Assembly: GCA_038895395.1 (NCBI GenBank)
Contig: JAWANJ010000002.1
Location: forward strand, 1-61,598
Reading direction: 5' to 3'
Origin: Candidatus Iainarchaeum sp.
GTDB lineage: Archaea; Iainarchaeota; Iainarchaeia; Iainarchaeales; DTGL01
DNA length: 61,598 bases
A program made the translations under genes and the position numbers. The stretch's first letter is position 1, and each line of letters begins with the position of its first letter. Below, in pieces: positions 41,278 through 59,400 of the stretch. Below the pieces are notes generated by a model. The model had not been told where the DNA came from, ran no database searches, and was given only the letters and a program-made list of their open reading frames with translations.

Positions 41278-44200
41278 TCAATTACAACTCCTTCTAGTAA
41301 GGACATTGATCACTGAATTTTCTTTAAGAGCTTTTGGATTCCACCACAGTGACATGCTATTGTCATTAGCATCTACACACAATAGCCCTTCTTTCGCCTT
41401 TTCAATGAGCTCTTTTATAGATCCAACTTCTGGGTTTTCTGCACCTTTTAAGTTATGTGCGATATGCTCACTGAGCTGTTGATCTAAAAACTTAACATTT
41501 GGCGAAGCGGAAGTCAAAACATAGTTCTTACCTTGTGGAGAGAAAAACACTGAACTGAAAAAGTCGTTCCTTATTTCCATGCCTCTGTCAAATTCCAGGC
41601 CATAAGTTTCGGGTTCAAGCTTTTTATCTGGGTAATTCAAAATTTCACTTAAACTCTCGTTTTCTGATGACTTACAGCTTTCAATCCAATTCCAATAAGC
41701 TAAATTGTCTCCAACATCTGTTGTTTTTCCGTTTTCTAAAAGTTTGTAACTTGCTGTTAATTTTTCGTCTAATTTTTTTGAGGTTTGATCTGAGACCTTC
41801 ATAATTGCTATTGAAGCAGTGTTTGGTGAAAACCTCAATAGTAATTCGTTTTCCTTAATTGTGCCACTCAAGATGTTTCCACGCGTTTTTGGATCAACGT
41901 TTGTATATTTTATATCATCTATTATTTCTGTCCTAACCTTTACCAGTGGGGCGCCTTTGCTACCTTCAGTTCTAAGCTCTATTCCACCATAATTGCTAAT
42001 AGTAATTGGTTTGCTAGTATTCTCATAACCACTGCCATATCCAATTCTACCATTAGAGCTCTTTAGGCCCACTTCACCATCTATCGGCCAATAGTAGAAC
42101 AAAGATTCTGGCTCTGGTGGGGAGATTTTACTGTACTTGACCTTAACCAAAGCGTTTGGTTTGTTGTTTCTAAAGAAAGAAAAACTATTGTTAAAGTCAA
42201 TCTCAAGAAATACGTGATAGCGCCCAGGCCCAAGCAGCTTTCTTTCAGGGTTTCCAGTTTCAAATGCTAGGGCATTTTGACTGATAAAGTACTCCTTAAA
42301 GCCCCCGCTGTTTTTGAACCAAAATGGAACTTCAAAGAATGTTTGTGTTGTGTAGTACTCCGCAAAGTCACTCTTAAAATCTTCAGTGTAGCCGTCCATT
42401 ATCAATAACGCGTCAAACTCCAACAATTTTTTCAAAAATTGAATCTTTTCCTGCACAGTTGAACCAGGCCAACCACTGGGCCACTTAATTTCTTTTACAT
42501 TAACATATTCATTCCAATTACTTAAATTTCTGTCAATAAAGTAAAATAAAGCGGGAACACCCTCAATTTTCTTTGTGCTATAAGGTATCCAGCACTCGCC
42601 GTTATCTGCTGATATGGTGAACGCTACAGTAACTTCTTTGCTTGTGTTGCAGCCCCTACTACATTGAGTAATATATGCTAAACCAAAGTAAACATCATTT
42701 TTGCCTTTATCGAGATTGTCAAACAGGCACTCAACAGTGGTAACAGTATTCTTAACAACATTAATCTCTTTTTCACATTCTTTAGCATAGTCGCTACTCT
42801 TAAGTAAGAATTTAACTCTTAGCTTTTGATCTTCACTTGTTTTGTTTTCTATCGTGGCGCTCAGCGTAACTGCTGTTCTTGAAGCATTTAGTTTGTAATC
42901 TAAATTACTTATACCTACTTCATTGCTCCTAATGATGGCAGTTGATTTGCCATCCGTTGTGCTTTTAGAAATACCTTCACTCAAAACTGAACGTGGGTGT
43001 TTTGGACAGGCAAAGTAGTAATCATTCGCTTTGAAAAACTCTTCCAGCATGTAAAGCCTTTTTGTTAGAGCTATGCTATTTTGTACTGCATCGCAGTATA
43101 TGGCGCTTTCATTTTCAGCATCGCAAGAGTTCCAATCAATAGAATCCCATCTCCAATCAAGCTTTACTTTTGGGCTAACATCTTCTGCTAAATAACCTGT
43201 TTTTGTTCCCAAACTGCAACCTTTTAAACCACTGATGCTTTTTAGTTTGTCCCCAATATTTGAATTTGTTACAAATCTCAAATGGACTTTCTGTGAGTAT
43301 TCCCTTGTTTCAGTGTCTGGAACATTAAAAACACCAAAGTCAGCTTTGTCCCTTTCCATTTTGGGGTTTAAGTGTGTCGGGTCACCGTGTATGTGTTCAT
43401 TAACGACTATTTCTAATATTCCATACTCGCCCTTTTCTGCCGCGCGGTTTGTGTTGTTTTCAAAGTTTATTGTAACTATTTGTTCCTTCTTGCTATAATT
43501 GCTTTCTCCCTCTTCTTTGCTTAGTGCCACATCATAGGGTAGCTCTAAAACCTCAAGCCTTTTTATGTCGGAAGGTAGGTTTATTACGTAATCCATAAAA
43601 GCGTAAGTCGCCATTTGAACATCGCATTGTGCTCCAGAAATTGTAAAAAATGTAGTTATGGCAGCGCCTACAAAGCATAAAACACCCGCCCAAAAGCCAC
43701 CTTGTGTAGCGCAAGTAACGCCTGCGAGCAGTCCAGCACCCGCAGCTACTGCAACATTCACCCAAAACCCCGGTTTATCCAATGTTGCTCTCTGAAGGGC
43801 CTTATTCATCACACAATATTCAGGCAATTCTTCGCCTTCTCTGCATGCTGTGCATAGCTTTGCAGTTATGTTTACATCTTCAACCCACATCTTGTTGATC
43901 AAGTTTGCAGAATCCTTCCAATTGGTTTGTGCAGTTAGTATAAACTCATACCTATTCATGCTGAAATATTGTCCTTTTCCAGGTTCTATTATTGTGTCAA
44001 TAGTATCTATATACTGATATTCTGTTTCAGGTGCTTTCGCATACAATGTTATCCCATAAATTCCAGGTATTTGCTCTCTGTGTATTGTTATTGTTTTGGA
44101 GGTCTCATTCTTTGTAAATTTAAGTTCTTCGTATGGGACCAGAGTGATGCCACCTTCTTTTGTACCACCACGACATCTTGGGTCGTCCTTGCATAGCCAA

Positions 44201-47200
44201 ACCGAGATATTTATGTTGCATGAATTTGCATCTATAGTCATTGTGGTTTCATTTTGTTCTGGTTTTAAAACAATCTTTTTTGGATAGCGTATGCAATCCT
44301 TTAAATTCACAATCAGGATATTGGCATTTATTTTTGAATCAGCTCCAACAAAGACAAGCCCTTTGTCTGTTTTTATCTGACCATCGAACTCAATTGTAAA
44401 AATTGCGGTTTCGCCTTTGTATTCTTCTCCGGGTTTGAAAGTGATTATTGTAGAGTAAGTGCCAGAACGTAACTCGTTTTCAAATTTATCAAACAATTTT
44501 GTCCAAACACCACTTCTTAAAATCTTTGTAACTGTTGCTCCACCGGGGGAATTTATTGTGATTTCCACAGCCCCAGCTTTTTTTGAGTTTGATGCCCAAG
44601 TAAGCTTTGCTTGGAGATTTTCAAGATCTACGGGTTTGCCGTTGCTTACACACAAGTTAGATAACTTAACTTCTGTCTTTGCTAGGTTGTCTACAGTTGC
44701 TATGTTCCATTCTGGTACATTTGGGCCTGATAAAGATATACATGGGGCGTTTTCTGGCAAACCGCCTAAAGAGACATTTGCAGTAAAAGGAACAACAAAA
44801 GTATATGTCAAAGAGTGCTTTTGTACCAACACAATAATTTCTATGCTTCCAGATATTTGAGTGTTGCTCTGTAATAGTGACTCTGCATTTGGCGAAAGTA
44901 GCACTTTAAGTGCAAAGTCCAGCTGGTCTTTTGGTTTTACTTTTTGTCCAACAACCGTTGTTGCGTTTGCATTCATTGTTTTTTCATCCAATATATCATA
45001 AAAGTTTCCAACAAATCTTACACTCTTTAACAAAAGTTCTGAGCCGCTTTTATTCTCCAGACTCAAGACTATCTTTTCTTCTGTCTTTGAGGATGTGTTT
45101 AAGCTAACAGAAACACTTTCTGGTACAACGCGTGCAACATTAGAGTCGATAGTAATGACTTTTTTGAAAGGAGAATAACCCATTTTTTCAGCAGTTATTT
45201 CTACTCTGGTGTTTGGTAGTGATTCTACTAACTTAAAAACTGCAAGCCCATTGGCATCAGTAAGTTGCTGAACCACTTCATTAGTGCCATCATCATGTGT
45301 TCTGTGCATTGTTACGAGAACATCCTTAACCTTTTTCTTTTCCCCATCTCTTATATTAACCTTAAGCTCATATTCTGTGAATGGTGCCAATTTCTCTGGT
45401 TCAATGTTTACGTCGAGCTTTCCGACAGAGTAAACCTTTATTGGAACTACTTTGGAAAAAACTACAAATTTGTCAGCAATTATGTCTATTGCTATATTAG
45501 TTGTTGTTTCATCGTTTGTTTTGAACCTTATGTTTGTATTTAATGTCTTTCCATAATCAAATCCAACTAAGTTTTCTTTAAACTCATTGTCTTGTGGCAT
45601 ATACTCTTTTTGCTCGATATCAGCTGTTATCAACATCTTTTCAAAGACCAACGCTGAATCTGACTTTCCTTGTGTTTTGTTTTTTATTCTAATCTCTAAC
45701 GAACCATATTCTTTTTGTGAGTTGTTGAGCAAGTCTAAAATAAGATTGTAGTCTCCAAACAGCACTGTTGAGTAGGGTTCCTTTAAGAAGATATCCTCTT
45801 GTGCATCGTACATCCAAACGCCTGTAACACAAAAAAGCTCTTTGCAAACCCCTTCAGAGCCTTCATAAAATCTAATTTCATGCGTTTTAGCATATAGAGC
45901 ATCCTTTGTGGATGTTCTCTCTAGATCGCCAAGCTCTTCATCATAAGGTTCTCTTACATATGCAGTGTTGATAACCGCATAGCTTCTATAATGGAAAGTT
46001 ATGGGTGTTTTTGGTCTTGTAGAATCCTTGATTTTAATTTTTATTGGTACTGTGTATACAGAGGCTTTGGGGCTCAACCACTCTATGGATACCCATTTTC
46101 CGTCTGATCCAACAATTTCCTCTAGCGCTTCGGACTTTGGCGGATTATATGTTTTACCTATTCTAACCATGGTTCCTTTGATGTCAACGCCCTTTATAAA
46201 TGCTGGCTCCAAATTAACATCACTTTTTTCACCTATTCTAAAGTGGAATCCAACTTTTGAAGCACCCGGTGGGTAAAAAAGCATAAATTTGGCAACATAC
46301 TCTTTGCCTGCCTTGATGCTAGCAGAAGCTCCGCCATTTTGATCAAAGATACCTAAAAATTCAATCTTTGGTTTTGGAAGCTCACCTTCTTTGAGCAACA
46401 CTGCTTTTATTTCATATGTTTCGTTTGGCCATAATTGTATGGTTTCACTTTCATAGTTAAGAAAGCCATCTTTGCTTACCACAACATATATGCTTTGGGC
46501 TGCTTTAACCTCATATTCCTTTTCACCATCAACCATAACAATTTTGCCCTTTGTAAGAGAATTTCTATCTATGGAGGAAAAAACTTCAAAATAAGACTCC
46601 GGAATCTTAATACCGCGAGAATCAAATGCACTTACCTTAAGAATGCTCTTGCCAATCGTTATGGTAACCTCGAAATAATTGTTTTCGTCTGGTATTATTT
46701 TCTTAGCCTGCGCTGCAGAACCTCCAGATGCTGGATATTTTATAACAAAAGGATATACCTCTTCACTTAACCAGCCCAAAACAAATTCAGCTATGCCATT
46801 AGAGTCTGTAAGCTTATAGTTTTGACTCGAAGGAAGTTCAACAATAGAGTCAGTAGCTTTGTACTTAAACATTACCTTAGCATCTTTTACAGGTGCTCCG
46901 TCTTCATCAAGAACTTTTACAATAGTTCGCCCACTGTTAGCCTCAGTTATTCTTTCGAGCTCAACAGTTAAAGATTCCATTGAAGAGCTGATGTTTATGT
47001 CTAAAGTTTTTGGGAAATATCCTTCTTTTTTTGCAACAACAGTATATTTGCCAAAATCAAAAAAAGAAAATCTAACAACACCGCCTTCTTTTGTAATATC
47101 GCTTGCAATTGCTTTTTTATCAAATAGGACTTTGACTTCTACGTTCTCTACAGCACTTTGAGTTTCCATTTCAATTGTTCTAACTAATAAAACCGCACTT

Positions 47201-48165
47201 ATTTTTTTGCTAAGTTCCACATAAACCTCTGTTGTTTCTTTTGCTCTGACAACTGCAGTTATACAATTTCCTGAATAAGTTTGTTCCGGGTCTGTAGCGA
47301 AAACATTGTACAACCCAGGAAGCAGACCATCAAAATCAACTAACCCATAGCCTTGTGTATGAGCAACCTGTTTTGTGCCATCTTTTTCTATGTTTACGAC
47401 TATATTTTTTTTAAGTATCAACTCTTTTTTTTCATCAACAATTTTTACCCTTAGAGCGCCTTTAGGTATTTCAATCTCTTTGAAAATAACTAGAATTTCA
47501 GTCCCTTTCTGGATTGCTCTCTCAAATTCATGGTTTTCCAACTCCGCATTTTCAACCTTTAACTCTTTACAATCCAAAGGCAATGTAACTTCTATGTAAC
47601 CATCTTTGTCAATGTCAACTTCCTTCCAAGGGTTGATTGACTTATTCGAACAACTCAGCCAAACAGTTACAAATTTCCCTCTTGTTGAACCTTTGCTTGT
47701 TTCAAATCGTAATATTCTTTTTTCCAATGGTTTTTCTCTAAGTTTAAGAGTTAGTGTTTTATCTGTATCCTCTTTAATGGTAAAGTTCCATTCCTCATCT
47801 AAATATAAAGGATGCTTAACTACAATCCGTACCACTGCATTTTCGTCAACACTAAATGAAATTTTTCCTTTATCATCAGTCCTTCTAATTTTTGGTTCGT
47901 TTCCAATAACAAAATTTACATCAATTCCAGATATGGGCGCCCCTTTTTCATCTTTGAAATAAACTGTGAAAGTATAACGCTTTGGTGGTTTTGTTGGTTC
48001 TTGACTGAAAAAGAGCCAATATGCAAAAAAAGCTAAAATTATTAGTAGTATAAGCACAATTGGCAGGGCTTTTGGAATTCCTCGTCTTTCACAAAATGCA
48101 ATGTACCTTTCTTTTAGAGTTGGTGATGAATCTTCTTCTATAAAATCCATTATCCACACCAACAT
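41278..48165 (-). CDS. giant surface protein G1 (2295 aa)
   Basis: Uninterrupted 6.9-kb ORF. Architecture: N-terminal TM anchor (nt ~48005-48070), six beta-sandwich repeats, a conserved core, a two-helix hydrophobic hairpin (FWVNVAVAAGAGLLAGVTCA-TQG-GFWAGVLCFVGAAITTFFTI, nt 43639-43767), then a ~780-aa C-terminal region. Colinear with G2 and G3. The likely start is the second ATG (MDFIEE, nt 48150), which is preceded by GGTG. Confidence 0.85.
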   Translation of the reverse strand: MLVWIMDFIEEDSSPTLKERYIAFCERRGIPKALPIVLILLIILAFFAYWLFFSQEPTKPPKRYTFTVYFKDEKGAPISGIDVNFVIGNEPKIRRTDDKGKISFSVDENAVVRIVVKHPLYLDEEWNFTIKEDTDKTLTLKLREKPLEKRILRFETSKGSTRGKFVTVWLSCSNKSINPWKEVDIDKDGYIEVTLPLDCKELKVENAELENHEFERAIQKGTEILVIFKEIEIPKGALRVKIVDEKKELILKKNIVVNIEKDGTKQVAHTQGYGLVDFDGLLPGLYNVFATDPEQTYSGNCITAVVRAKETTEVYVELSKKISAVLLVRTIEMETQSAVENVEVKVLFDKKAIASDITKEGGVVRFSFFDFGKYTVVAKKEGYFPKTLDINISSSMESLTVELERITEANSGRTIVKVLDEDGAPVKDAKVMFKYKATDSIVELPSSQNYKLTDSNGIAEFVLGWLSEEVYPFVIKYPASGGSAAQAKKIIPDENNYFEVTITIGKSILKVSAFDSRGIKIPESYFEVFSSIDRNSLTKGKIVMVDGEKEYEVKAAQSIYVVVSKDGFLNYESETIQLWPNETYEIKAVLLKEGELPKPKIEFLGIFDQNGGASASIKAGKEYVAKFMLFYPPGASKVGFHFRIGEKSDVNLEPAFIKGVDIKGTMVRIGKTYNPPKSEALEEIVGSDGKWVSIEWLSPKASVYTVPIKIKIKDSTRPKTPITFHYRSYAVINTAYVREPYDEELGDLERTSTKDALYAKTHEIRFYEGSEGVCKELFCVTGVWMYDAQEDIFLKEPYSTVLFGDYNLILDLLNNSQKEYGSLEIRIKNKTQGKSDSALVFEKMLITADIEQKEYMPQDNEFKENLVGFDYGKTLNTNIRFKTNDETTTNIAIDIIADKFVVFSKVVPIKVYSVGKLDVNIEPEKLAPFTEYELKVNIRDGEKKKVKDVLVTMHRTHDDGTNEVVQQLTDANGLAVFKLVESLPNTRVEITAEKMGYSPFKKVITIDSNVARVVPESVSVSLNTSSKTEEKIVLSLENKSGSELLLKSVRFVGNFYDILDEKTMNANATTVVGQKVKPKDQLDFALKVLLSPNAESLLQSNTQISGSIEIIVLVQKHSLTYTFVVPFTANVSLGGLPENAPCISLSGPNVPEWNIATVDNLAKTEVKLSNLCVSNGKPVDLENLQAKLTWASNSKKAGAVEITINSPGGATVTKILRSGVWTKLFDKFENELRSGTYSTIITFKPGEEYKGETAIFTIEFDGQIKTDKGLVFVGADSKINANILIVNLKDCIRYPKKIVLKPEQNETTMTIDANSCNINISVWLCKDDPRCRGGTKEGGITLVPYEELKFTKNETSKTITIHREQIPGIYGITLYAKAPETEYQYIDTIDTIIEPGKGQYFSMNRYEFILTAQTNWKDSANLINKMWVEDVNITAKLCTACREGEELPEYCVMNKALQRATLDKPGFWVNVAVAAGAGLLAGVTCATQGGFWAGVLCFVGAAITTFFTISGAQCDVQMATYAFMDYVINLPSDIKRLEVLELPYDVALSKEEGESNYSKKEQIVTINFENNTNRAAEKGEYGILEIVVNEHIHGDPTHLNPKMERDKADFGVFNVPDTETREYSQKVHLRFVTNSNIGDKLKSISGLKGCSLGTKTGYLAEDVSPKVKLDWRWDSIDWNSCDAENESAIYCDAVQNSIALTKRLYMLEEFFKANDYYFACPKHPRSVLSEGISKSTTDGKSTAIIRSNEVGISNLDYKLNASRTAVTLSATIENKTSEDQKLRVKFLLKSSDYAKECEKEINVVKNTVTTVECLFDNLDKGKNDVYFGLAYITQCSRGCNTSKEVTVAFTISADNGECWIPYSTKKIEGVPALFYFIDRNLSNWNEYVNVKEIKWPSGWPGSTVQEKIQFLKKLLEFDALLIMDGYTEDFKSDFAEYYTTQTFFEVPFWFKNSGGFKEYFISQNALAFETGNPERKLLGPGRYHVFLEIDFNNSFSFFRNNKPNALVKVKYSKISPPEPESLFYYWPIDGEVGLKSSNGRIGYGSGYENTSKPITISNYGGIELRTEGSKGAPLVKVRTEIIDDIKYTNVDPKTRGNILSGTIKENELLLRFSPNTASIAIMKVSDQTSKKLDEKLTASYKLLENGKTTDVGDNLAYWNWIESCKSSENESLSEILNYPDKKLEPETYGLEFDRGMEIRNDFFSSVFFSPQGKNYVLTSASPNVKFLDQQLSEHIAHNLKGAENPEVGSIKELIEKAKEGLLCVDANDNSMSLWWNPKALKENSVINVLTRRSCN

Positions 48166-48179
48166 TTACCTATTTTGCT

Positions 48180-51100
48180 TTAGTCTTTTATACACTGTGA
48201 AGGTATGCTTTCTATAGTGTTCTTTAATGACGAATTGATGATCTCTTGCTGATTCCAGAAAAATATCGCTCTTGAGTCACTTCCAGCACCGGCGATGCAA
48301 ATTTTCTTTTCTTCCACTAACCTAAGTATCTTTTCTATTGAGGTTATTATTGTCTCTTCTAAGCCACCAGCCTCTACACGATTTCCAGTACCTTTTGGAG
48401 TTATAAAGCTTGCACTGTCCATAGCACTCACAATCTCGAGTAAAGCTGTACTTTCCTGTGGAGTATACAAGACAGTCTTAAGGAATGTATCCCCTTTTCT
48501 TATCACGTTGCACCATTCAATACCATATTGGTGTGTATCAAAACTTCCAGCACATTGGGTTCTACCAACACCTCCACGAATGTCTCTTTTGTAGTTAAAA
48601 GCTTCTGTCACATCAACATCACTGAAGTCTTTACAGCCTTTTGTAACACCAGCCCATGTGAAAAGATTACTAGACGCTTCCTGAGGTTTACCATTTATCG
48701 TAAGCTGGTAGAACACATACGCTTTTGTTCTTTCACCTCCGCTTACCTTGAGTATTATTGGTGTGACAACGCTTGGGCTATAAATCATACTTATACCACT
48801 GGCCGCTTTTTCAAGTTCTAAAACAACCCCTGGAGCATCATTGTGCAAAGTTTTAAAGTCTTTTACAACGCGGGCCTCTATCCACCCGCCAGGTATTGGC
48901 ACCGAGTTTGCAATTGTGGTTGTTCTTACTGGTTGTCTTATGTCCTCATTTATTTTTACAGTTTCTTCTGATTTTTGCCTGTAGTTTACTCCATACCCTT
49001 GTCGGCCGTTTTGGCTGTCGACACCTATAAGTCCGTCAAAGGGCATGTAATAGAACACAGAGTCTGGCTTTGGTGTGTCAAGGCGCTCAAATATCACTTC
49101 TATTTTCGCATCAGGCGTGGTGTTTTCAAACAAACACCAACAATTGTTGTTATAATCAATATTTATTTTGATATTATATTTTCCTGCTGGCAGATAGCCA
49201 GCTTCAGGCCTTAAGAATGATGACTTAAACTCAAACAGTTCTGGGTTTGAAAAGAATTTTCCAAGCCCAGTTTCTCCCTTATACCAAGATGGAGTGCTAA
49301 AGAAGTCTTTTGTTTCAGAGAACTCATGGAAGTCTCTTCTAAAGTCTAGCGTATAGCCATCTTGGATAAGATATGCATTAAAATTCACCAGTGATAATGC
49401 TTCTTTTAGGTTTGCGTTTGTTGGGTTGGCAGCAGCAAACTCTGCTAAGCGTTCAGTGGTATAAGGCTCACATTTTTCAAAGATTCCGGTTGGAGCACCA
49501 ACTGAGAATCTTGTGCTCAAAATATCATTGCCAAGGTTTTCATTTTTACAAGTTCCCGGACATGTGCTAAGCTGTGGACTAACTCTAATTGTGGCTTCAT
49601 ACAAACCTTCTGCAAGCTCATTAAATGTGCAACTAACCTCGCTATCGTCAATCACTTTTATTGCTTTTTCACCTTCTGGACAGCTCAAAGTTGATCCATC
49701 TTTTACAACATTTATAGATACGTTAACAGTTAGCTCTTTTTTGTTGTTGCTTGAGATTATGCCAATTACTTTGGCATTAGCTCCACTTTTTTCAATCTTT
49801 ATTTTTGTTACAGCAACGTCAAGCTTTAATGAGTCTAATTCCTGACTTCTTTCGTTCAGAATCCCTTCAGCTGAAGGACATTTCAGTTTTTGGCCTCTTA
49901 GCAATTCATCAATCCTTCTTATTTTTTTAAGCAACTCAATACTTAACTGAGTTGCATCGCAATAGTATCCTAAACCACCTTCATCACATTCATTTATAGC
50001 AATATCTTTCCAATTCCAAGCAAGCTTTATCTTAGGTAGAGCTTCCTTGCCAGTTGAGCCCACAAGAGCACCAACCTTACAACTAACCTCGGGCTTAATT
50101 GTAATCTCGGTGGGTTTTGACCTATGGGAGTTGAACTGTAGATGGAACTTTTGCAAATATCTTTCACCACCAATTACTGTTGGCTCCATCTTTTTCATAG
50201 CTTCAGCATCTTTCTTCATTCTAGTGTCATAGTTGGTGTCATACTCTAAACGATTTCCATCAACCCTAAGTACGCGATATATTGGTTTGTATATGTCTTC
50301 TTGTTGTATGCCATTGTTTTTGAATATAATTTCAATCTTCTCGAAACCTAGTGGTTTATCGGGTGTGGTTTCGACTTTACTATCGCCTTTTTGAACACTA
50401 ATCAGAGTTTCAATTTCCTCTTCTAAACCTTTTTGTATTACAAGTTGTAAGTCTGTTATGTTCAAATCCCTTACTGCAGCAACCACCTCAAGTACGCCAA
50501 CGTTTTGGCTTTGCTGCCAGTAGGTATATAAAGTGCCGGCTATGAAACCTATCAATGCCCCAGTCCAGGGGTCGTCTATGTTTATTATATTGCTAAAGAC
50601 ATTAAGACCGCCTTGTAAAAGACTTCCTATACTTTCTAATGAAAAGAACCCGACAGGTGCTGAGGTTACCATAACAGTTTGGTTGGGTTTCAATTTTGTG
50701 CTTACAACCGTGCTTGTTTTTCCAGCACTACTTAGATTGCAAAAGCTATTGTTGCAACTCTTAAACTTGTAGCAAGGCCCACTTTTTGAACACTCTACAT
50801 CATATTCACATGTAACCGCAAGTTCGCAATCACAAACCTTGCTCAAACCTGAGCCATAAGCTTTTTGACATTTGGCTAGTGTATCATAGCATCCGAAGCA
50901 CAAATTGCTGCTAGGTGCTATATCAGCACTAACACACTGGCCATTGTAGCACTTTGCACCAGTTGCGCCACAATCCATAAAAATGCCTCTTTTACCACAA
51001 CTGTCTTTCCAATAAAGCTTGTCATCCTCGCAATAGTATCCTTCAACAATACATTCTTCTCCAGACATAGCGCCAGAAGATCCACATCTGCTATTATTAC

Positions 51101-54100
51101 AATATCCAAATCTGTAGCATTTACCAAACTCATCATATATGCAGGTTATTGCAGCATAGCAATCGCATCCGCCTGTTGAAATCGTGGGGTTATTCCAAGC
51201 TTTCGCAGCGCATTCAATCTCAGTACTGTAACAACCTGGGATTTTTGGTCCAACAGCTGAAATAAGGCCACTTCCAGTTGTCGGCTGTTCTGGTCCAGCA
51301 CAATCGTTTTTGCAGCATAGCACAAACCTTTCGGCTGTTTGCATCGAAAATGTGCAATCTGGATAGCACTCCTCATAAGACTGTATCCTTCTTGAATTCA
51401 AGTAGTATGTTTTGCACATTTCTTCATCTGTTGCAGGCGATGTTACAATTGGAGATGTTGTAACAGTGGGCCTTGTGGTGCCAGTGGGTGGTTTTGTGCT
51501 CTCTTTTACACACTGTTTGCTACAACAAGTAACATTACCAACTACTGCATAGGCAGCATCAGGGCATAACTCATCTTCTTTACAAAAATATTTTCCAGCA
51601 GATGTGCAGACCTTTTCAGGGGTTTCAATTTTCGTGTCTTTGCACTTACCAGTGCAGCATACAACCCCTTCAACTACAACCTCTTTGCCTTGACTTAAAT
51701 CACAGTTTCCAGGCCCGCAGTAAGTGTAACCCTTCTTTTTACACCATTCTTTATCCAAACGAGCTTCTTCTGTTATGCACTCTGAAGCACAGCAAGTTAT
51801 ATTGTCAACTACTACTATCTTCTCATCTTTACAAAGATTTTTGGTACCACAATATTTGTATCCAGCCTTGTTGCAAACATTTGAAGGGATGGGTGTGCCA
51901 AAGAATGTTTTGCCAGCAGCAAGTGATCTTACGCCCCCATAAACAAAACCAACAAGCCCCCAGATAGCGCCTGTTTTTATCGCTTCCCACCAATCACGTT
52001 CATCATAGCTTATCGTAATTGTTTCTGTCCTTTTATAGCAGTCATTTATGAGCAATGCTGTATCAAATCCATCATATGGATTATTTTCGTCGTCATATAT
52101 ATCAAACTCATATCGATTCAGTCTTAAGCAACCATCCGGCTCTATGATAACCCTTATTAGCTTCTTAAAAGAGTATTGACTTTCACCCATACTTTTGACC
52201 ATAACATAAATAGGATATTGTCCCGGTATGTCTTGTTGAGACGGCATTACAATTATTTCTTTTGAGTCATCTGGTTTCATGGTAAATTCTTTTTCTGATA
52301 CTGCAATCTTTGTATCAAGCATGAAATCAATGGGTACTTTACATTCTTTAGTTTCGATTTTTATTGTTGCTTCGTTGTAATCAACAATTCTAACTAATGT
52401 TTTGTCAAATCTTATGCAGTCTTCCAAGCTTATTATTTCTATTTCAGTATCTATGCTCGCGCTTAGGACTTGCTTGCCTGCATTTGTATAATGTTCTCCA
52501 GTGATGATCACCTTTGCTTTTGCTGTTCCTGTAATGCCAGCATCTGGTAAGAATTTCAAAAGTGCTGAAATTTCTTCCTCTGCGCCAAATGTGCCTTTAA
52601 TAATTTTTGGATAAGAACCGCTAAGCTCTAATGCGACATCGCCAATGCTTACATAGTAATCTCCAACACGATTGCTCTGCCACTCTATCCTTGCGCTTAG
52701 GTTTTTAAGATCTATTGGCTTGCCGTCAACTGTACAATTGTTCTTAACTGAAAAGTCAGTGCTCACTTCATTGCTTTTTGTCTTTGTTTTCCACTCCTTT
52801 ATGCTAACCACTAAACATGACGGATCTTCAACTTCACCACCAAGACCTATTGAAATTTTGACCTTTGTTTCAGAGTTCCAAACATGTCCAAAGGCCTTTA
52901 CCGAAGAAACGCTTGCTGTCAAGATACCTTCTAAGGTTTTGGCCTGTGTCAAAGTTTTTCCAAAATCGCTCAAGGATACCTTAAGAGCAATGTCAAGTTT
53001 GTCATGTGGCTTTATTTCTTTACCAACATATTCGCCTACAAGCCAGTCCCTTACTTTTCTTTCATCAATTGCTCCATAAAAGTCTCCAGAAAGCTTAATT
53101 CCATAAACCTTCAGTGGCATTGCAGTCTTATTTACTAATCTTACTACGGCACTATCTTCAGTCTTAGAAACAACATTTAATTGCAGGCCTATTTCAGATG
53201 GCTCTATGCCAAGCACATTACCATCAGCAAATATTTCCTTCTTAGCTTCCTCGTAATCTGGCTTCTCTGCAGTTAGTACTAATTTTTCTCCAGGCATCAA
53301 TGCTGGTAGCTTGACTTCAGCCAAGCCCAAAGAGGTTGTAGTTGTTTGAAGCATTGTGTTGCCATTTGGATCCTTTATTTTAACCAAAACATCTGAAACT
53401 TCCAAGTTTGTTTGCTTGTCTCTTATCCTTGCTATTATTTTATTTTCTACACCACTGGTTAGTATTGGCGCTTCAGATTGGAAAGTATCTCCAACTTTAA
53501 AGTCTATAATGAAGCTCTTGGCTGCAATTATATCAACAAAGATTGTTTCTTCAAATACGTGTGCAAACCTTGTTGGATCATGTAACCTAATGGTTATACC
53601 TCCAAACTTTCCAGTGGTTGGTGAAAAGTTTATATAGCCGTGAATCTCAGTGTTTGGTTTAACGTCACCAATCTCTATATAAGATGTCTCACTTGCATTT
53701 GCAGTTCCTTTCACAACTGTTTCGCCATAGATTTCATAATTGCTAAAAACAATGTTCTTTTCACTGTTGAATATCTTAAGCTTTACCTTGCTGTAGCTGT
53801 CAGTCTCAAATTTGCTATTGTTTGTAATACTGAATATTAACCTATATTGTTTTCCAACTTTGGCACTATAGCTTCTATCTATATAAACAGCAACATTTTC
53901 TTCAATGTCTAAAGCTTTAAAGACAGTACACCACTTTTCTGTGCATAACCTCTCTTCACCTACGCTATAGACACGCTCATAGGTTTTTGCATACAGCTCC
54001 CTATCACTTAAAGCATTTCCAAGAGTTATGTCTTCTGGATCCCTAACCAAAATACCTTTTCTTAAACCCCACGCACGCCACATAATGCTAAGCTCTTCAG

Positions 54101-56327
54101 CAGCTGCCGACTCTTTGACCTTTACTTTAACATATACATATATTATTCCATCGCTTTGCTTGCTCCACTCAAGGTTTATCCACTTAGAGCTTTCTGCACT
54201 TAAAGAGGCAAGGTCATATGTCGTGCCTTCTTCTGGATTATAAGAAGTTCCTCTTATCATTTTTGGGTTTCCACCTGCATAGACCTCCTTTATGAAAATA
54301 AAGTCTTTTTCCATAATGTTATATTTACCTACCCTTACGTGAGCACCAAAGCGGTCATATTGAGCAGACCTGGGTACAGAAATTTTAAACTTTGCAATAT
54401 ATTCTTTGCCTGCAGCCAAAACCATTACATTCTTTTCGTCCTTGAAAAGACCTAAAAACTCGATCTTTATTTCACCACTAATCCTTTCAGCTTCAAGCCT
54501 TATGTTCATGCTCCTTTGTTCATTTGGCGCAAGCACAATCCTCTGGCTTATGTAAGTAGCATACTCTGGGTGACTAACAAAAAGATAAAATGAAAGGCCC
54601 GCATCTATGTTTATATCAAGTTCACCACTTATTTTTTCTACCTTTAATGGACCTTTTATAACCTTATCCGTGTAAGCGTCTTTTACTATAACATCACTAA
54701 AAGGTAGAGCTTCGTCATCAGTGTTTGTTACCTTTAGCTTTAAAGTTGCTTTTGGTATATCAAGCACAATAATTGCTTCTTGTTCAATGCCAAGCCTAGG
54801 TATAAACTCAATTACATCGCTCCAGTTGCTACCAAATCCTTTATAAGCAAAGAATTTGTATTTTCCAGCGTACAAACCTTTAAATTCTGCTCTTCCATTC
54901 ATATCAGTAATCATTTCCTTTAACCCAAGAGCATTTCCATTACTGTCATAGGCAGCTACCTTTGCGTTTGGTATTGATATGCCCTGAGAATCAACTACTT
55001 TCACAATAACTAAGCCCCCACAGTCATTCGCATAAGGCTGTAGTTCTAATTTTATGATGCCCTCTGATTTTCTCACATCAGTAAGCCTATGCACGCAATA
55101 GTCTGGGTGATTTATCACTAATAAGAAGTTTATATCTTCACAAAGGTGAAAATCAACCCTGCCTTCTGAATTAGTGTCAGCAGAAGCATATTGTTTGTTA
55201 CCTACAAAAAGCGTTGCCTTTGCTCCTTCGAGTGGTTTTGAGGTTGTTTTATCAACTACTTGGATTTTTATACTTCCAATATACCTTGGTGTAAGCTCTA
55301 GGCTAACAGTTCTATATTCGTTAGCTCCAATAGTTATAAACTGAGATTCAGCAGATGTATACGTAGTAGTGGCTTTTGTTTTAACCCTATAACTTCCGGG
55401 CAAAACCTCAAATAATACTTGACCACCACTCGTAACTCCAGATTCAACGAAAACAGGTGTTGCACCAGTGTCTTTTTCAAGGTCAACTATGATGTTTTCA
55501 GATGGTGCCTGACCTTTGAATGTTACATTTACTATTATTTTTCCTTTTTGTTCTGGGGGTTTCATCTCAACAATCTTTTTTAGTAAAATAGTCGACCCAT
55601 CTGTAACGCGAACACCTTCTTTAGCTTCATAGCCTCTGGTGCTTAAAGTTACAATCAGTGGAAGGCAGTCAATTTCAACATCATCTATTTGTACTTCCCC
55701 ACCGTGTGTTGTATATTTCTCAGCATCTGCGGGCGGATTTGCTTTTTTGTTAGAGCACTCAAAAGAAAGCGAAATCCTTTGGACGATGGGCTCTTTATTG
55801 TTTTCGTCTAAAATCCTAAAGCTTACTGTTTGCGTACGGATAATTTCGGTAAGTAAAAAGTTAATAACTACATTTTCATCTTCTTCAATTAAAACACTTT
55901 TTTCAATGGGATTCGGCTTGAATCCTTCTTTAGAAACACGCAAAGTTATTGAGTCACCCTTTTTAACAGCAATCGCTTCTGATAGAGTCCCAGCAGTATT
56001 AGTGGCACTCCTATAAACCTTTTCACCCAAGAGCATTTCAACATTTGCCCCTTCTAAAGGCCTTTTTGCACCAAACCTGTCTTGATACTGAACAAACACG
56101 TTAACGTAAACATCTTTTTTGAATACACTTATTGGCAGAAAGAAAATTACTAACGCTGCTATTAATACTAGTGCCAATATTATTAGCAAAAGGAATGAGG
56201 GAAATACCTTATCAATAGCGTCAGTTATCTTATTTATAGGTATCTTTGTGCTAATCCTGTCTATAATTTCGTAGTATCTGTCCTCAAGATGCAAATAAAG
56301 TTCACGCAATGCACTTATTACGCCCAT
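48180..56327 (-). CDS. giant surface protein G2 (2715 aa), paralog of G1 with a 448-aa Cys-rich insertion
   Basis: Uninterrupted 8.1-kb ORF ending 14 nt upstream of G1. Same architecture as G1: TM anchor (nt ~56130-56205), six CarboxypepD_reg-like repeats (e.g. VIVKVVDSQGISIPNAKVAAYDSNGN...TDMNGRAEFKGLYAGKYKFFA), then shared motifs in the same order. Confidence 0.85.
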   Translation of the reverse strand: MGVISALRELYLHLEDRYYEIIDRISTKIPINKITDAIDKVFPSFLLLIILALVLIAALVIFFLPISVFKKDVYVNVFVQYQDRFGAKRPLEGANVEMLLGEKVYRSATNTAGTLSEAIAVKKGDSITLRVSKEGFKPNPIEKSVLIEEDENVVINFLLTEIIRTQTVSFRILDENNKEPIVQRISLSFECSNKKANPPADAEKYTTHGGEVQIDDVEIDCLPLIVTLSTRGYEAKEGVRVTDGSTILLKKIVEMKPPEQKGKIIVNVTFKGQAPSENIIVDLEKDTGATPVFVESGVTSGGQVLFEVLPGSYRVKTKATTTYTSAESQFITIGANEYRTVSLELTPRYIGSIKIQVVDKTTSKPLEGAKATLFVGNKQYASADTNSEGRVDFHLCEDINFLLVINHPDYCVHRLTDVRKSEGIIKLELQPYANDCGGLVIVKVVDSQGISIPNAKVAAYDSNGNALGLKEMITDMNGRAEFKGLYAGKYKFFAYKGFGSNWSDVIEFIPRLGIEQEAIIVLDIPKATLKLKVTNTDDEALPFSDVIVKDAYTDKVIKGPLKVEKISGELDINIDAGLSFYLFVSHPEYATYISQRIVLAPNEQRSMNIRLEAERISGEIKIEFLGLFKDEKNVMVLAAGKEYIAKFKISVPRSAQYDRFGAHVRVGKYNIMEKDFIFIKEVYAGGNPKMIRGTSYNPEEGTTYDLASLSAESSKWINLEWSKQSDGIIYVYVKVKVKESAAAEELSIMWRAWGLRKGILVRDPEDITLGNALSDRELYAKTYERVYSVGEERLCTEKWCTVFKALDIEENVAVYIDRSYSAKVGKQYRLIFSITNNSKFETDSYSKVKLKIFNSEKNIVFSNYEIYGETVVKGTANASETSYIEIGDVKPNTEIHGYINFSPTTGKFGGITIRLHDPTRFAHVFEETIFVDIIAAKSFIIDFKVGDTFQSEAPILTSGVENKIIARIRDKQTNLEVSDVLVKIKDPNGNTMLQTTTTSLGLAEVKLPALMPGEKLVLTAEKPDYEEAKKEIFADGNVLGIEPSEIGLQLNVVSKTEDSAVVRLVNKTAMPLKVYGIKLSGDFYGAIDERKVRDWLVGEYVGKEIKPHDKLDIALKVSLSDFGKTLTQAKTLEGILTASVSSVKAFGHVWNSETKVKISIGLGGEVEDPSCLVVSIKEWKTKTKSNEVSTDFSVKNNCTVDGKPIDLKNLSARIEWQSNRVGDYYVSIGDVALELSGSYPKIIKGTFGAEEEISALLKFLPDAGITGTAKAKVIITGEHYTNAGKQVLSASIDTEIEIISLEDCIRFDKTLVRIVDYNEATIKIETKECKVPIDFMLDTKIAVSEKEFTMKPDDSKEIIVMPSQQDIPGQYPIYVMVKSMGESQYSFKKLIRVIIEPDGCLRLNRYEFDIYDDENNPYDGFDTALLINDCYKRTETITISYDERDWWEAIKTGAIWGLVGFVYGGVRSLAAGKTFFGTPIPSNVCNKAGYKYCGTKNLCKDEKIVVVDNITCCASECITEEARLDKEWCKKKGYTYCGPGNCDLSQGKEVVVEGVVCCTGKCKDTKIETPEKVCTSAGKYFCKEDELCPDAAYAVVGNVTCCSKQCVKESTKPPTGTTRPTVTTSPIVTSPATDEEMCKTYYLNSRRIQSYEECYPDCTFSMQTAERFVLCCKNDCAGPEQPTTGSGLISAVGPKIPGCYSTEIECAAKAWNNPTISTGGCDCYAAITCIYDEFGKCYRFGYCNNSRCGSSGAMSGEECIVEGYYCEDDKLYWKDSCGKRGIFMDCGATGAKCYNGQCVSADIAPSSNLCFGCYDTLAKCQKAYGSGLSKVCDCELAVTCEYDVECSKSGPCYKFKSCNNSFCNLSSAGKTSTVVSTKLKPNQTVMVTSAPVGFFSLESIGSLLQGGLNVFSNIINIDDPWTGALIGFIAGTLYTYWQQSQNVGVLEVVAAVRDLNITDLQLVIQKGLEEEIETLISVQKGDSKVETTPDKPLGFEKIEIIFKNNGIQQEDIYKPIYRVLRVDGNRLEYDTNYDTRMKKDAEAMKKMEPTVIGGERYLQKFHLQFNSHRSKPTEITIKPEVSCKVGALVGSTGKEALPKIKLAWNWKDIAINECDEGGLGYYCDATQLSIELLKKIRRIDELLRGQKLKCPSAEGILNERSQELDSLKLDVAVTKIKIEKSGANAKVIGIISSNNKKELTVNVSINVVKDGSTLSCPEGEKAIKVIDDSEVSCTFNELAEGLYEATIRVSPQLSTCPGTCKNENLGNDILSTRFSVGAPTGIFEKCEPYTTERLAEFAAANPTNANLKEALSLVNFNAYLIQDGYTLDFRRDFHEFSETKDFFSTPSWYKGETGLGKFFSNPELFEFKSSFLRPEAGYLPAGKYNIKINIDYNNNCWCLFENTTPDAKIEVIFERLDTPKPDSVFYYMPFDGLIGVDSQNGRQGYGVNYRQKSEETVKINEDIRQPVRTTTIANSVPIPGGWIEARVVKDFKTLHNDAPGVVLELEKAASGISMIYSPSVVTPIILKVSGGERTKAYVFYQLTINGKPQEASSNLFTWAGVTKGCKDFSDVDVTEAFNYKRDIRGGVGRTQCAGSFDTHQYGIEWCNVIRKGDTFLKTVLYTPQESTALLEIVSAMDSASFITPKGTGNRVEAGGLEETIITSIEKILRLVEEKKICIAGAGSDSRAIFFWNQQEIINSSLKNTIESIPSQCIKD
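50568..51911 (-). other. Cys-rich insertion of G2 placed between the two hairpin helices (helix a 51912-51974, helix b 50517-50567)
   Basis: Contents, in order:
- Three ~40-aa 6-Cys repeats (C.K.GY.YCG...C.....VVV....CC...C; nt ~51510-51875).
- A Thr/Pro linker (TKPPTGTTRPTVTTSPIVTSPAT, nt ~51425-51500).
- Two ~55-aa 8-Cys repeats (GCY.T...C.KA......CDC....TC.YD....C.KF..CNNS.C; nt ~51072-51236 and ~50725-50894).
- Other Cys-rich modules. Confidence 0.8.
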
Positions 56328-56435: not shown

Positions 56436-59400
56436 TTACTGCCCAAACAAAGTTGGATTCCATCTTAACCTAAGTTGAGCTCTATTTATGTTATCTATAC
56501 ATATCTCCCCTGAAGCTATTCTTTCAATGTACTCCTTAAGTGATGGTTGTCTTATTGCTTCTATGATCCTCACAGCGCCGCCTTCAATTCCACGCGTTTC
56601 CGGTGTGCTATACTCTTGACCTTCATATGTTAAAGTGCTCAAAACTATTGGGTTTTTGGCACAAAGAACCTCAAGTTTTAAGTATTCATCAGCTGCTTTT
56701 GCAGGTACATAGCTTACAGAAACCCATAAACCTTGTCCTAATATTAGCTTTGATGCTTCAATGCTTTGTGACCAGCCACTGCAAAAGCTATCTGGTTTTT
56801 GTAAGCCAAATCTGTCAACACTAAACTGAACTTTTTCTTCGCCTTCAGAGCCCGCTCCTTGCTCATTGGGCACTAAAGAACCAACTTTGTGCCATACAAA
56901 TAACTCTTTTATATCTCCATAATATTTGTCATCACTTAGTTTGTAGTAAATCACATTTTGGCCCTCAGTTGGTGAAATTATCCTTAAAAGCACCGGGTAG
57001 CTTGGCACATATTCAATTTTTCTAGACTTAAGATCTATATTCAAAACAGTGCCGGTGCGACTTTTCTCAAATCTGCTATTATAATTGAGTGTAATTGTAC
57101 CAATGCCCGGCTTTCTTGGATAGATGCGCTCACCATGTTCATTGTATAAAAGCTCTGAAGGTACGGCACCAGCAAGTGTTAACCCCAAGCCATAATTTGC
57201 ACCAGTACTTTCTTTGCCTATCTCGCCATCGAATGACATATACATTAATGGATTTTCAGAAAACTTTGTTTTTAAGCGCTTGTCTATAGCTTCTAGAGAT
57301 TCTACTAGGGCCAGCTTTACAATATACTTTGATACAATAATTTTAGGAGGTCTGCCTGCAAAGTCTATTGCTATTTTAGGTTCAATTCTGTAAGCATATC
57401 TGCCGGAAGCAATACTACATTCCGTGCTTTTTTGTACCATTTCTTCTGAAAAGTTAGCATCTTCATAGCGCTTGAACTCAAGCTGATCTACATTAAGGCC
57501 TATTTGCTTAAGTGTTTCATTTCCTTTATCTAGATCTTCTATTAAAGCTCTACTCAGATTATCAGCCTTAAGATAGCTCTCTGCCTTAGCTATGAGTGAT
57601 TCTTCACTAGGTGTGCTTAACACATCAAGTGCTCTAACCCTTATGTATTCTTCCATCGCCCCAGAAAGACCTGGTTTGTTAATTACTGCAAGCATAAATA
57701 CAGTCCTATTTGCAAATTCAGATAAAAATAGGGTCCATTCCTGTTCTTTTGCTGTAATGGTTACTTGACCTATGGTTGCTGTTATTGGTAAATTCCTGTC
57801 ACCAAACATGATGTTGTTTCTTACTCCAATTGAAAGCTGTTCATACAGGCTAATATACTCAGCAAAGGTTATAACATAAACACTTTGTCTTGGTAGTTTA
57901 ACCTCGTCCGCTACCTGTTTAAGTTTACTCCAAATTAATTGAGCATTGGCGCTATAGTCAATATCTTTAGAAACAATAGCCAGTGCATTTTCTATCTTTA
58001 TATCGTTTGCATAGCATTGCGCTAGTATGCTATCAAACTGGGCATGAGACATTTTCATGGAGTCTAATGCAGCCAACTCATTTTGTGGAGCTTTTATAAT
58101 ACTGTTCAAAGTAGCTTCAATTTGTGCTACATTACACTTTTCCAGTGGTACAGGTGGCTGCCCAAGAATAGTACCTTCTTTTGTAACAAACAAAAGAATC
58201 GGCTTATTTGAAAAATCATCTCTCACAACAATCTGTGCCTTTGAGAGTTTGTAAAGTTTTCCTTCCTGGGAGTTTATCTCACGCATTAATTCTTGGTCTT
58301 GGCCTATGATTGAAATTACACTTAAATACTCTGCCGGAGCACTCTTGTTTATCTCTTCAATCTTTTGATTTATTTTTCTTATTTTTGATGCAATTTGCAT
58401 TATAAATTGCGCTCCATCACAGAAGTACCCCTCTCCCGATGGTTCAGGTTCACACTTTCTACTTGTTATCTCATCAGGTCGCCATGTAAACAGCAATCTG
58501 TCAAATCCATATACAGAGTAACTTTCCTGACTGTTGCATGGCTTAAGCATACCCCAACTTGGCATAACATCTATTTTTGCAGCTCTATTTTCACAACCTT
58601 CAGATAACTGTGAAACACCCCTGTTCAAAGCATTTACCACTACTTTTAGCTTTGCATCTTGAGTACCTTTCTTGTAATAAACCCTGGTTACTTTTATTGG
58701 TAGGTCTATGTTTATCTTTGCACACTCAGTTATCATTTTACTTCTGTCAACTTTCATTACAATATGATGCCTGTTATGCGTAAGTTCGAAATAAAGCTTT
58801 ACACCCGACTTTGGATCTTCCCATGAAGATAAACCAATACTAGCTATATAGTCGTCTTTACCACAAAAAGCTCTAGCATTTGAATCACTTGAAGGATCAA
58901 CCTCTTCGTTGGATCTTGCGTAAGGCAGCACAAGCTCAGTCACAGGTGGGTTTTCATTCCAAACAAACATGTCATCTATGAAGTGACTATCAGTTAGCAC
59001 ATCTGGTACAATGAGAGCGTTGGGGTTTATACACTGTGCTGGTTCAAGATTCTTGGAGCCTTTGTTTAATAAGCTGCCAATAAGACCAAGCCATGCCAAT
59101 GGATTTTCAAATGTCACACCAACAGGGAAGTATTTATCTCCGAGGTATGGTACATACATTGGCACAGCTATGATGCCTGGAGAAACAGCAGCAAGATACT
59201 GTTCAGTTGCTATAAACCTTATGTTTCCAACAATTTCTTCTACCGAACCTTCAAAGCTGATTGGTGCTGTTTTTTTGATCTCTGGATCAAACCACAGATA
59301 TATTTCCATTATTTGCCACTCTTCTTTATCCGAAACTTTTTGCACCTCATTTTTTCCCATTACAATGTTTTTTATCATAGGGCATGGCCCTTCAAGCGAT

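Follow-up and report, generated by a model that had tools for sequence, protein, structure and literature searches.

A candidate glycine-zipper membrane hairpin within a giant archaeal surface protein, and the variable, cysteine-framed junction that holds it in an unnamed DPANN protein family

Background

A large part of archaeal diversity is accounted for by the DPANN archaea, and little is known of the ways in which their cell surfaces meet their own membranes or those of their hosts. Here we describe a locus within a 61,598-nucleotide stretch of DNA from Candidatus Iainarchaeum sp. (contig JAWANJ010000002.1, assembly GCA_038895395.1), referred to in its entire length as the window. The locus encodes three giant paralogous proteins, G1, G2 and G3, and the element in question is an uncharged, Gly/Ala-rich hydrophobic hairpin located about two-thirds along G1, far from the N-terminal membrane anchor of the protein. 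An earlier interpretation, made from the DNA letters and their open reading frames (ORFs) before any database search (the sequence-only reading), took the hairpin for a pair of transmembrane helices that would staple the protein to the membrane at a second point. In this paper, we have located the corresponding junction in relatives of G1, modelled the structure of the hairpin and its flanks, and weighed the possible dispositions of the hairpin with respect to the membrane. The features of the locus are collected in Table 1.

Table 1. Features of the G1-G3 locus in the window (aa, amino acids; KD, mean Kyte-Doolittle hydropathy; dG19, summed insertion free energy over 19 residues, see Results)
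Feature	Position (nt)	Strand	Residues	Description
G1	41278-48165	-	1-2295	2295-aa giant surface protein, intact ORF
G1 domain order				N-terminal anchor, Ig-like/CarboxypepD_reg beta-sandwich array, hairpin junction, beta-rich C-terminal 786 aa (from ORF list, Pfam and AlphaFold of aa 1096-2295)
G1 N-terminal signal-anchor helix ALPIVLILLIILAFFAYWLFFS	48004-48069	-	33-54	Leu/Ile/Phe-rich; dG19 -4.7, KD 2.8
G1 Cys cluster in LCTACREGEELPEYC	43813-43854	-	C1438, C1441, C1451	directly upstream of the hairpin
G1 helix A FWVNVAVAAGAGLLAGVTCA	43708-43767	-	1467-1486	Gly/Ala-rich, marginal hydrophobicity (dG19 +2.85, KD 1.71); DSSP helix in the AlphaFold model
G1 turn TQGG	43696-43707	-	1487-1490	uncharged; G2-type relatives carry inserts at the equivalent position
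G1 helix B FWAGVLCFVGAAITTFFTI	43639-43695	-	1491-1509	membrane-grade (dG19 -0.1, KD 1.92)
G1 conserved Cys	43624-43626	-	C1514	immediately follows helix B; in the family part of (D/E)PC or (D/E)C, with LPDYVINL next
G2	48180-56327	-		paralogue of 2715 aa, 30% identical to G1; same sequence as database protein P0103
G2 equivalent of helix A TGAIWGLVGFVYGGVRSLAAG	51912-51974	-	1452-1472	kept as a motif, not membrane-grade; AlphaFold helix, pLDDT 76-86
G2 insert	50568-51911	-		448 aa between the helices, with a Pro/Thr linker and repeats of six-Cys and eight-Cys modules
G2 equivalent of helix B WTGALIGFIAGTLYTYW	50517-50567	-	1921-1937	GxxxGxxxG
G3 remnant PLAWLGLIGSLL	59067-59102	-		matches helix B only
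Small membrane protein, 141 aa	40801-41226	-		directly downstream of G1; several long hydrophobic stretches; kept in two related genomes
Small membrane protein, 106 aa	40484-40804	-		several long hydrophobic stretches; start overlaps the 141-aa ORF by 4 nt; kept in the same two genomes
Coiled-coil protein, 151 aa	39984-40439	-		no significant Pfam family; adjoins the array in all three genomes examined
ORF of 505 aa	38481-39998	+		no significant Pfam family; adjoins the array in all three genomes examined

Results

The hairpin of G1

The hairpin peptide, FWVNVAVAAGAGLLAGVTCATQGGFWAGVLCFVGAAITTFFTI, is the translation of nucleotides 43639-43767 on the reverse strand and corresponds to residues 1467-1509 of G1, exactly as the sequence-only reading had placed it. 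It lies within a run of 50 residues that is free of D, E, K and R. When the sequence of G1 was shuffled 2000 times, the longest such run had a mean length of 22 residues and a maximum of 43, and none of the 2000 shuffles attained 50. A chance occurrence or a frame artefact can be ruled out, since the ORF is intact and the feature is retained in orthologues with 35-60% identity. To describe hydrophobicity we used the Kyte-Doolittle mean and dG19, a plain sum of Hessa-type insertion free energies over 19 residues, without position weighting; on both scales (Table 1) helix B is membrane-grade by itself and helix A is marginal. Helix B contains a single Cys, as does helix A towards its end, and further Cys residues stand at either end of the hairpin: C1438 of the upstream cluster aligns with the Cys of a motif, C[DA]W, that occurs family-wide, and C1514 may be the disulfide partner that seals the hairpin base.

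The structure of G1 residues 1096-2295 was predicted with AlphaFold2 from an alignment of 28 sequences. The model has a mean predicted local distance difference test score (pLDDT) of 82.4 and a predicted template modelling score of 0.74, and in it the hairpin is flanked on either side by beta-sandwich domains of high confidence (pLDDT 80-95). Its sole long stretch of low confidence, residues 369-417 of the fragment (aa 1464-1512, pLDDT 28-42), is the hairpin, where DSSP assigns two helices (fragment residues 373-386 and 399-409) that are detached from the fold; a short helix, aa 1452-1463, precedes it, and no amphipathic helix bundle is seen. The model thus shows two low-confidence helices between confident beta-sandwiches rather than a core strand or helix buried in a globular domain, an outcome which the sequence-only reading had named as refuting; the hairpin is not part of the globular fold. 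A Foldseek search of the model against PDB and BFVD returned, at TM-scores near 0.1, only generic beta-sandwich or Ig-like arrays (alpha-2-macroglobulin, complement, cytokine receptors and phage tail proteins), and the C-terminal 786 residues of G1, searched by sequence against PDB, gave no match.

The helices of the hairpin carry the small-residue spacing of glycine zippers. In the G1 hairpin four motifs of the form [GAS]xxx[GAS]xxx[GAS] overlap, and these, together with the TQGG turn and the two DSSP helices, agree with the spacing and tight turn that characterize such elements. Gly makes up 18% and Ala 19% of the residues in the compact hairpins of the family, where [GAS]xxxGxxx[GAS] motifs number 5.1 per 100 residues. 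These proteins' N-terminal anchors, in contrast, are 27% Leu, 14% Phe and 5% Gly and lack the motif altogether; the two are distinct kinds of hydrophobic segment. In Pfam searches, the hairpin of the relative P0047 reached 28.3 bits against PF13488 (cut-off 25), and that of P0054 matched PF13441 with E = 1.8e-5 and 24.8 bits, below the cut-off of 28.9 bits, while weaker matches of the relatives' hairpins were to microcin V (MccV), Bacteriocin_IIc, P22 ejection protein and the RTX N-terminal region. The G1 hairpin with its flanks matched no glycine-zipper family of Pfam at E < 0.05, the best being the glycine-zipper region of DUF883_C (E = 0.057). These matches are compositional for the most part and do not imply common descent. 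Residues 1467-1509 of G1 are best read as a putative glycine-zipper-type membrane hairpin, whose function is inferred.

A large family with one hypervariable junction

The nearest relatives of G1 found by a word-based homology search (three relatives) are proteins of metagenome-assembled genomes (MAGs) labelled Candidatus Diapherotrites. A full HMMER scan with G1 residues 1096-2295 recovered 547 protein clusters (at 50% identity) at E <= 1e-3, and 210 of them at E <= 1e-30, so the family has at least 547 clusters. Most members are 2300-2700 residues long, and nearly all of the full-length ones possess the N-terminal anchor helix. The few that are named are annotated as 'carboxypeptidase regulatory-like domain-containing' or hypothetical proteins of Diapherotrites/Iainarchaeota and Micrarchaeota. 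Across the family the Pfam domains are restricted to CarboxypepD_reg, Big_1 and MG-type, with no protease or nuclease domain. Pfam searches with G1-G3, the isolated hairpin, the G2 insert and both flanks returned only the N-terminal immunoglobulin (Ig)-like domains and nothing at the hairpin site, and literature searches found no publication on these proteins. Judged by sequence, G1-G3 are members of a DPANN family of giant surface proteins that is large and has no name.

The domains that precede (G1 aa 1300-1445) and follow (aa 1513-1720) the hairpin served as anchors to place the junction in 103 relatives, and a common frame emerged: C[DA]W.(E)A, Gly/Ala helix A, a turn or insert, Gly/Ala helix B, (D/E)PC and LPDYVINL. 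The upstream Cys is present in 86 of the 103 relatives, and the downstream one in 36 of the 38 where the motif was automatically located. Conservation of the Gly/Ala pattern in homologs had been named in the sequence-only reading as a check, and many homologs do keep a Gly/Ala-rich hydrophobic element at this junction: a segment with dG19 <= 2 lies between the anchoring domains in 51 of the 103 relatives (<= 0.5 in 36), and all 58 mid-protein segments of this grade fall at the junction, with none elsewhere beyond the first 90 residues, where the N-terminal anchor resides. Among close orthologues of G1 the flanks are conserved, and the hairpin drifts in sequence yet remains hydrophobic.

Within this frame the junction is hypervariable and adopts three architectures. 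Seven full-length proteins have a short loop and no hairpin (for example CDWGKKSSTRNLGDGWSAFWRLSWSKMFADKC), and four of these seven loops are Trp-rich. The second architecture is the compact hairpin, with 45-65 (up to about 150) uncharged residues and a helix B that often reaches a dG19 of -3 to -4. In the third, which is that of G2, inserts of 240-800 residues part the two helices. The inserts comprise Ala/Gln/Ser/Thr-rich, helical-looking stretches with a few paired Cys, Pro/Thr linkers, Cys-rich modules, beta-rich domains and Lys/Glu coiled-coil-like stretches, and Pfam found no match within the inserts of four such relatives. The median minimum dG19 is 4.12 for junctions with inserts of at least 150 residues versus 0.35 for compact ones (Mann-Whitney p = 1.6e-6, a test that ignores relatedness). 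The topology had been called unusual for an archaeal surface protein; within this family, however, it is not rare, and the hairpin is a recurrent cassette.

Two kinds of local detail accompany these architectures. In the Trp-rich, hairpin-less relatives P0012, P0067, P0071 and P0087 the loops are amphipathic, with 4-6 Trp per 20-45 residues between two conserved Cys, and look like membrane-interface-binding segments. In the compact hairpins of P0013, P0022, P0034, P0037, P0043, P0070, P0076 and P0104, a CPxC or CxxC motif is located exactly at the start of helix B (e.g. WWCPPCIAAG, FCPVCGLI), and this motif at the hairpin turn could be a redox or metal site.

Both flanks of the hairpin lie on the same side

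The N-terminal and C-terminal regions of G1 had been proposed to reside together on the outer side of the membrane, and the relatives bear this out. The seven full-length relatives without a hairpin link the two flanking domains directly, and invariant Cys residues occur both before and after the hairpin site, eight or more of them in the C-terminal region. The density of N-glycosylation sequons is about 1.0-1.1 per 100 residues in both regions of G1 versus 0.4 in the other ORFs of the window; the observed/expected ratio does not discriminate, being 1.21 both in the ectodomain and in those other ORFs, which are mostly housekeeping and presumed cytoplasmic. Because of the hairpin-less relatives, the invariant Cys, the richness in beta-sandwiches and the sequon density, the two large regions share one compartment, and with an N-in anchor and adhesin-type domains that compartment is the outside. 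The chain must therefore cross the membrane at the junction either twice or not at all.

The residues preceding the anchor are also of note. The 30-40 residues before it are conserved family-wide (LKERYIAF in G1, 48070-48165 on the reverse strand), and the G2 subfamily has a motif of its own there, EDKYY..LD....IP.YKI.DPIDKV.PSF (56208-56327 on the reverse strand in G2), which suggests that these residues may serve as a cytoplasmic interaction or targeting motif.

The junctions of G2 and G3

The sequence-only reading assigned two equivalent helices to G2. Both helices are indeed present where it placed them and at the homologous junction; they are, on the other hand, 448 residues apart, and their hydrophobicity is not membrane-grade, so they do not count as equivalent transmembrane segments. 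Their KD means are 1.06 and 0.90, no 19-residue window falls below a dG19 of 5.5, and the longest run free of D, E, K and R is 27 residues, a length attained by 385 of 2000 shuffles. G2 has a split pair of weak helices and no hairpin. Both helices are conserved as motifs in the G2 subfamily, KDW..A.K.G... and NP...GF..GT..Y, and in a shallower AlphaFold model of the junction (mean pLDDT 53) they extend over 25 (A) and 23 (B) residues with pLDDT 76-86; one six-Cys module of the insert is modelled as a small beta-rich unit (pLDDT 82-83). In our reading, the two helices of the G2 junction would pair without entering a membrane and serve to display a Cys-rich module. The insert holds three to four copies of C-x6-C-x5-C-x12-CC-x3-C, one pair of eight-Cys units and an epidermal growth factor (EGF)-like unit, C..EGY.C...W.DSCG. 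The EGF-like unit occurs in three additional copies in the Iainarchaeum orthologue of G2 (L001, 3-6221), which suggests that repeat number in the insert evolves fast.

For G3, the visible part had been described as having only a short remnant of the hairpin, and this was found to be so: a counterpart of helix B is present and no equivalent of helix A is seen. At its visible start (60867-61598, reverse strand), G3 resembles part of a class-C beta-lactamase (PF00144 profile positions 139-320, E = 1.5e-20), and this fragment is fused straight to mid G-family sequence, with an in-frame stop directly upstream and a GC content of 0.45 versus about 0.38. The G3-like gene of L002 encodes a full 2391-residue protein with CarboxypepD_reg domains. 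Given this counterpart and the anomalies of fusion and GC content, the 5' end of G3 seems to be an artefact of chimeric assembly or the product of a recent rearrangement.

Gene neighbourhood

The genes near G1-G3 are archaeal housekeeping genes, namely those for PolB, HisRS, BpsA, RpiA and RNA polymerase subunits. The order G3-G2-G1, 141-aa protein, 106-aa protein, 151-aa coiled-coil protein, convergent ORF of about 505 residues and PolB recurs in two other genomes: a Candidatus Iainarchaeum MAG, whose syntenic locus carries a G1 orthologue 60% identical, and, at a greater distance, a JGI contig with a G1 orthologue of 35% identity. The counterparts of the small membrane genes lie at 13186-13919 in L001 and at 17020-17779 in L002, the latter of which adds three further small membrane ORFs. 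No Pfam family was found for the 141-aa and 106-aa proteins; they are candidate membrane partners of the giant proteins, which would mildly favour a complex in the cell's own membrane.

Discussion

Disposition of the hairpin

It is most likely that the G1 hairpin is embedded in a membrane, and we read the junction of the family in general as a membrane-interacting site of variable depth. As to which membrane, we tentatively prefer, at somewhat less than an even chance, that the Gly/Ala hairpin spans the cell's own membrane as a second attachment point with both large regions outside. According to this model, the Leu/Ile-rich N-terminal helix would anchor G1 with its N-terminus inside, some 1400 residues of Ig-like domains would be exported, helices A (marginal) and B (membrane-grade) would jointly enter the membrane as a tight Gly/Ala hairpin, and the final 786 residues would be exported as well, leaving G1 tethered at two points, possibly along with the two small membrane proteins encoded downstream. 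The helix B of several relatives, with a dG19 of -3 to -4, is as hydrophobic as the N-terminal anchors, and the Sec translocon is expected to integrate segments as hydrophobic as true anchors into the membrane.

Several observations weigh against such a spanning hairpin. The TQGG loop of G1 contains neither K nor R, and where the loop of a compact relative has a lone charge it is acidic about twice as often as it is K. The flanks hold more K/R than the loop, although by the positive-inside rule a cytoplasmic loop should be the more positive of the two; family-wide, K/R and D/E number 61 versus 265 in the ten residues after helix B and 144 versus 211 before helix A, and the charge counts thus do not support a cytoplasmic loop. 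Helix A of G1 is only marginal when taken alone, and distant G1-type relatives are weaker still (e.g. P0007, +3.1). In addition, the tip inserts of many relatives look extracellular, with their Pro/Thr linkers, disulfide-type Cys modules and beta-rich domains, and the helices that bear them are much less hydrophobic, so the site is probably not membrane-spanning in the insert-type proteins.

The acidic base and the uncharged loop would suit a different arrangement, akin to the alternative of a membrane-insertion element raised in the sequence-only reading, in which the entire ectodomain is exported and the Cys-closed hairpin, presented on the distal C-terminal part like a fusion loop or a glycine-zipper pore-former, inserts from outside into the cell's own outer leaflet or into the membrane of a partner or host. 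We consider this unlikely, though several observations agree with it. Many DPANN archaea live attached to host cells; the junction is hypervariable, a frequent trait of contact surfaces; and four of the seven hairpin-less relatives place Trp-rich amphipathic loops of an interface-binding type at the very site. The Cys that bracket the hairpin recall disulfide-bonded internal fusion loops (compare PMC10831964), and exported glycine-zipper elements look much like these Gly-rich, moderately hydrophobic helices (bioRxiv 10.64898/2026.06.08.730324, 10.64898/2025.12.22.696046, PMC12955049). It is difficult to reconcile with the -3 to -4 of helix B in many relatives, as such a segment should not cross the Sec translocon unintegrated, and with tip inserts of 240-800 residues in many others, which misfit a tip that has to enter a bilayer; moreover, only beta-sandwiches, and no heptad-repeat or helical-bundle machinery, are found next to the hairpin, and a host of the G1 lineage is hypothetical. 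A bolder version would make the junction a modular membrane-attack or contact cassette, with the G1-type Cys-stapled hairpin carried on an Ig stalk into the membrane of a partner cell, and we regard it as doubtful; likewise doubtful is its corollary that the hairpin, as a fusion loop or pore-former, helps to build cell-cell bridges supplying these reduced archaea with lipids and metabolites, with the G2- and G3-type paralogues of the operon displaying variable binding modules at the corresponding site.

The helices might also sit in no membrane at all, forming a hydrophobic pair buried in an oligomer of G1, G2 and G3 or against partners and acting as a stalk for the variable inserts. The G2 subfamily speaks for this, its helices being conserved as motifs, not membrane-grade, 23-25 residues long and of the highest local confidence in the model (pLDDT 76-86), as do the very different inserts that emerge between the helices and the maintenance across genomes of three tandem paralogues with differing junctions. 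For G1-type proteins, however, 45-65 (up to 150) charge-free residues with an anchor-like helix B would be hard to keep soluble and exported, only hydrophobicity and not sequence is conserved, as is typical of lipid-facing segments, and the AlphaFold monomer packs the hairpin against nothing; on balance we find the idea rather improbable. Very much less probable is that helix B is the sole membrane span and the C-terminal 786 residues are cytoplasmic. That helix B alone is membrane-grade and helix A marginal agrees with it, but the hairpin-less relatives join both domains directly and hence in one compartment, Cys residues stand at both hairpin ends, and the C-terminal region has at least eight invariant Cys, beta-sandwich folds and an ectodomain-like sequon density (about 1.1 per 100 residues).

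Whatever the disposition, this work defines a large, unnamed family of giant surface proteins, three genes of which are kept in an array together with those of two small membrane proteins, and singles out one Cys-framed junction at which modules, be they membrane-active or displayed, get swapped. If the hairpin did insert into a foreign membrane, it would be a candidate for the long-sought DPANN-host contact machinery; if it is a second anchor only, it is an ordinary though odd-looking membrane tether.

Comparison with known systems

The hairpin was compared with a number of known elements, and the first three of the following were rejected as readings of it. A PGF-CTERM/archaeosortase signal is brought to mind by the KPGF that precedes helix A of G1, but 786 residues follow it and orthologues read PDW or DPGK. 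An internal signal peptide cleaved within helix B (between ISGA and Q) would require a basic n-region, which is absent, and the small-x-small site is missing in most relatives. A colicin-type pore domain does not fit the beta-rich flanks, which have no amphipathic helix bundle. A class I viral internal fusion loop has flanking Cys as here, but the neighbours of the G1 hairpin are beta-sandwiches, and Foldseek matched no fusion protein. As for a classical transmembrane hairpin, which consists of two membrane-grade segments of at least 19 residues and a positively charged cytoplasmic loop, helix B of G1 is membrane-grade on the simple-sum scale and helix A marginal, and the loop is without positive charge.

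Glycine-zipper helices have been described for the SlyB and YfgH lipoproteins and for secreted toxins (bioRxiv 10.64898/2026.06.08.730324, 10.64898/2025.12.22.696046, PMC12955049). The G1 hairpin resembles the families PF13488 (Gly-zipper_Omp), PF13441 (Gly-zipper_YMGG) and PF05433 ('Glycine zipper 2TM domain'; SlyB, YfgH) in being an uncharged hairpin of 40-50 residues with small-xxx-small helices, and some relatives' hairpins attain or come near the Pfam cut-offs of such families, although that of G1 itself does not match. It differs in its position, since it lies in the middle of a 2295-residue archaeal protein, whereas the SlyB/YfgH type adjoins a lipoprotein anchor in the bacterial outer membrane. 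The secreted glycine-zipper toxins (the type VII secretion system effector LXG-T2, PMC12955049; microcin V and class IIc bacteriocins) likewise have exported glycine-zipper helices, which act on the membrane from outside; unlike them, the G1 element is internal to a cell-anchored protein, and no toxin architecture, immunity gene or secretion-system context was seen. The fusion domain of Lassa GP2 (class I, PMC10831964) is similarly an internal, Gly/Ala-rich hydrophobic segment, flanked by Cys, on an anchored surface protein; in G1, by comparison, the segment is longer (43 residues in two helices), its disulfide is putative, its flanks are beta-sandwiches and heptad repeats are lacking.

At the level of whole proteins, the family recalls the SPEARE proteins of Nanohaloarchaeota, which are giant DPANN surface proteins. 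Both are very large, lineage-specific and membrane-anchored, with adhesin-type domains and a suspected role between cells; no sequence relation was seen, and the G1 family has just the CarboxypepD_reg, Big_1 and MG-type domains and no protease or nuclease domain. The novelty lies in the setting, a cassette-like junction framed by Cys in a DPANN family of giant proteins, three paralogues of which stand in one operon with different versions of that junction.

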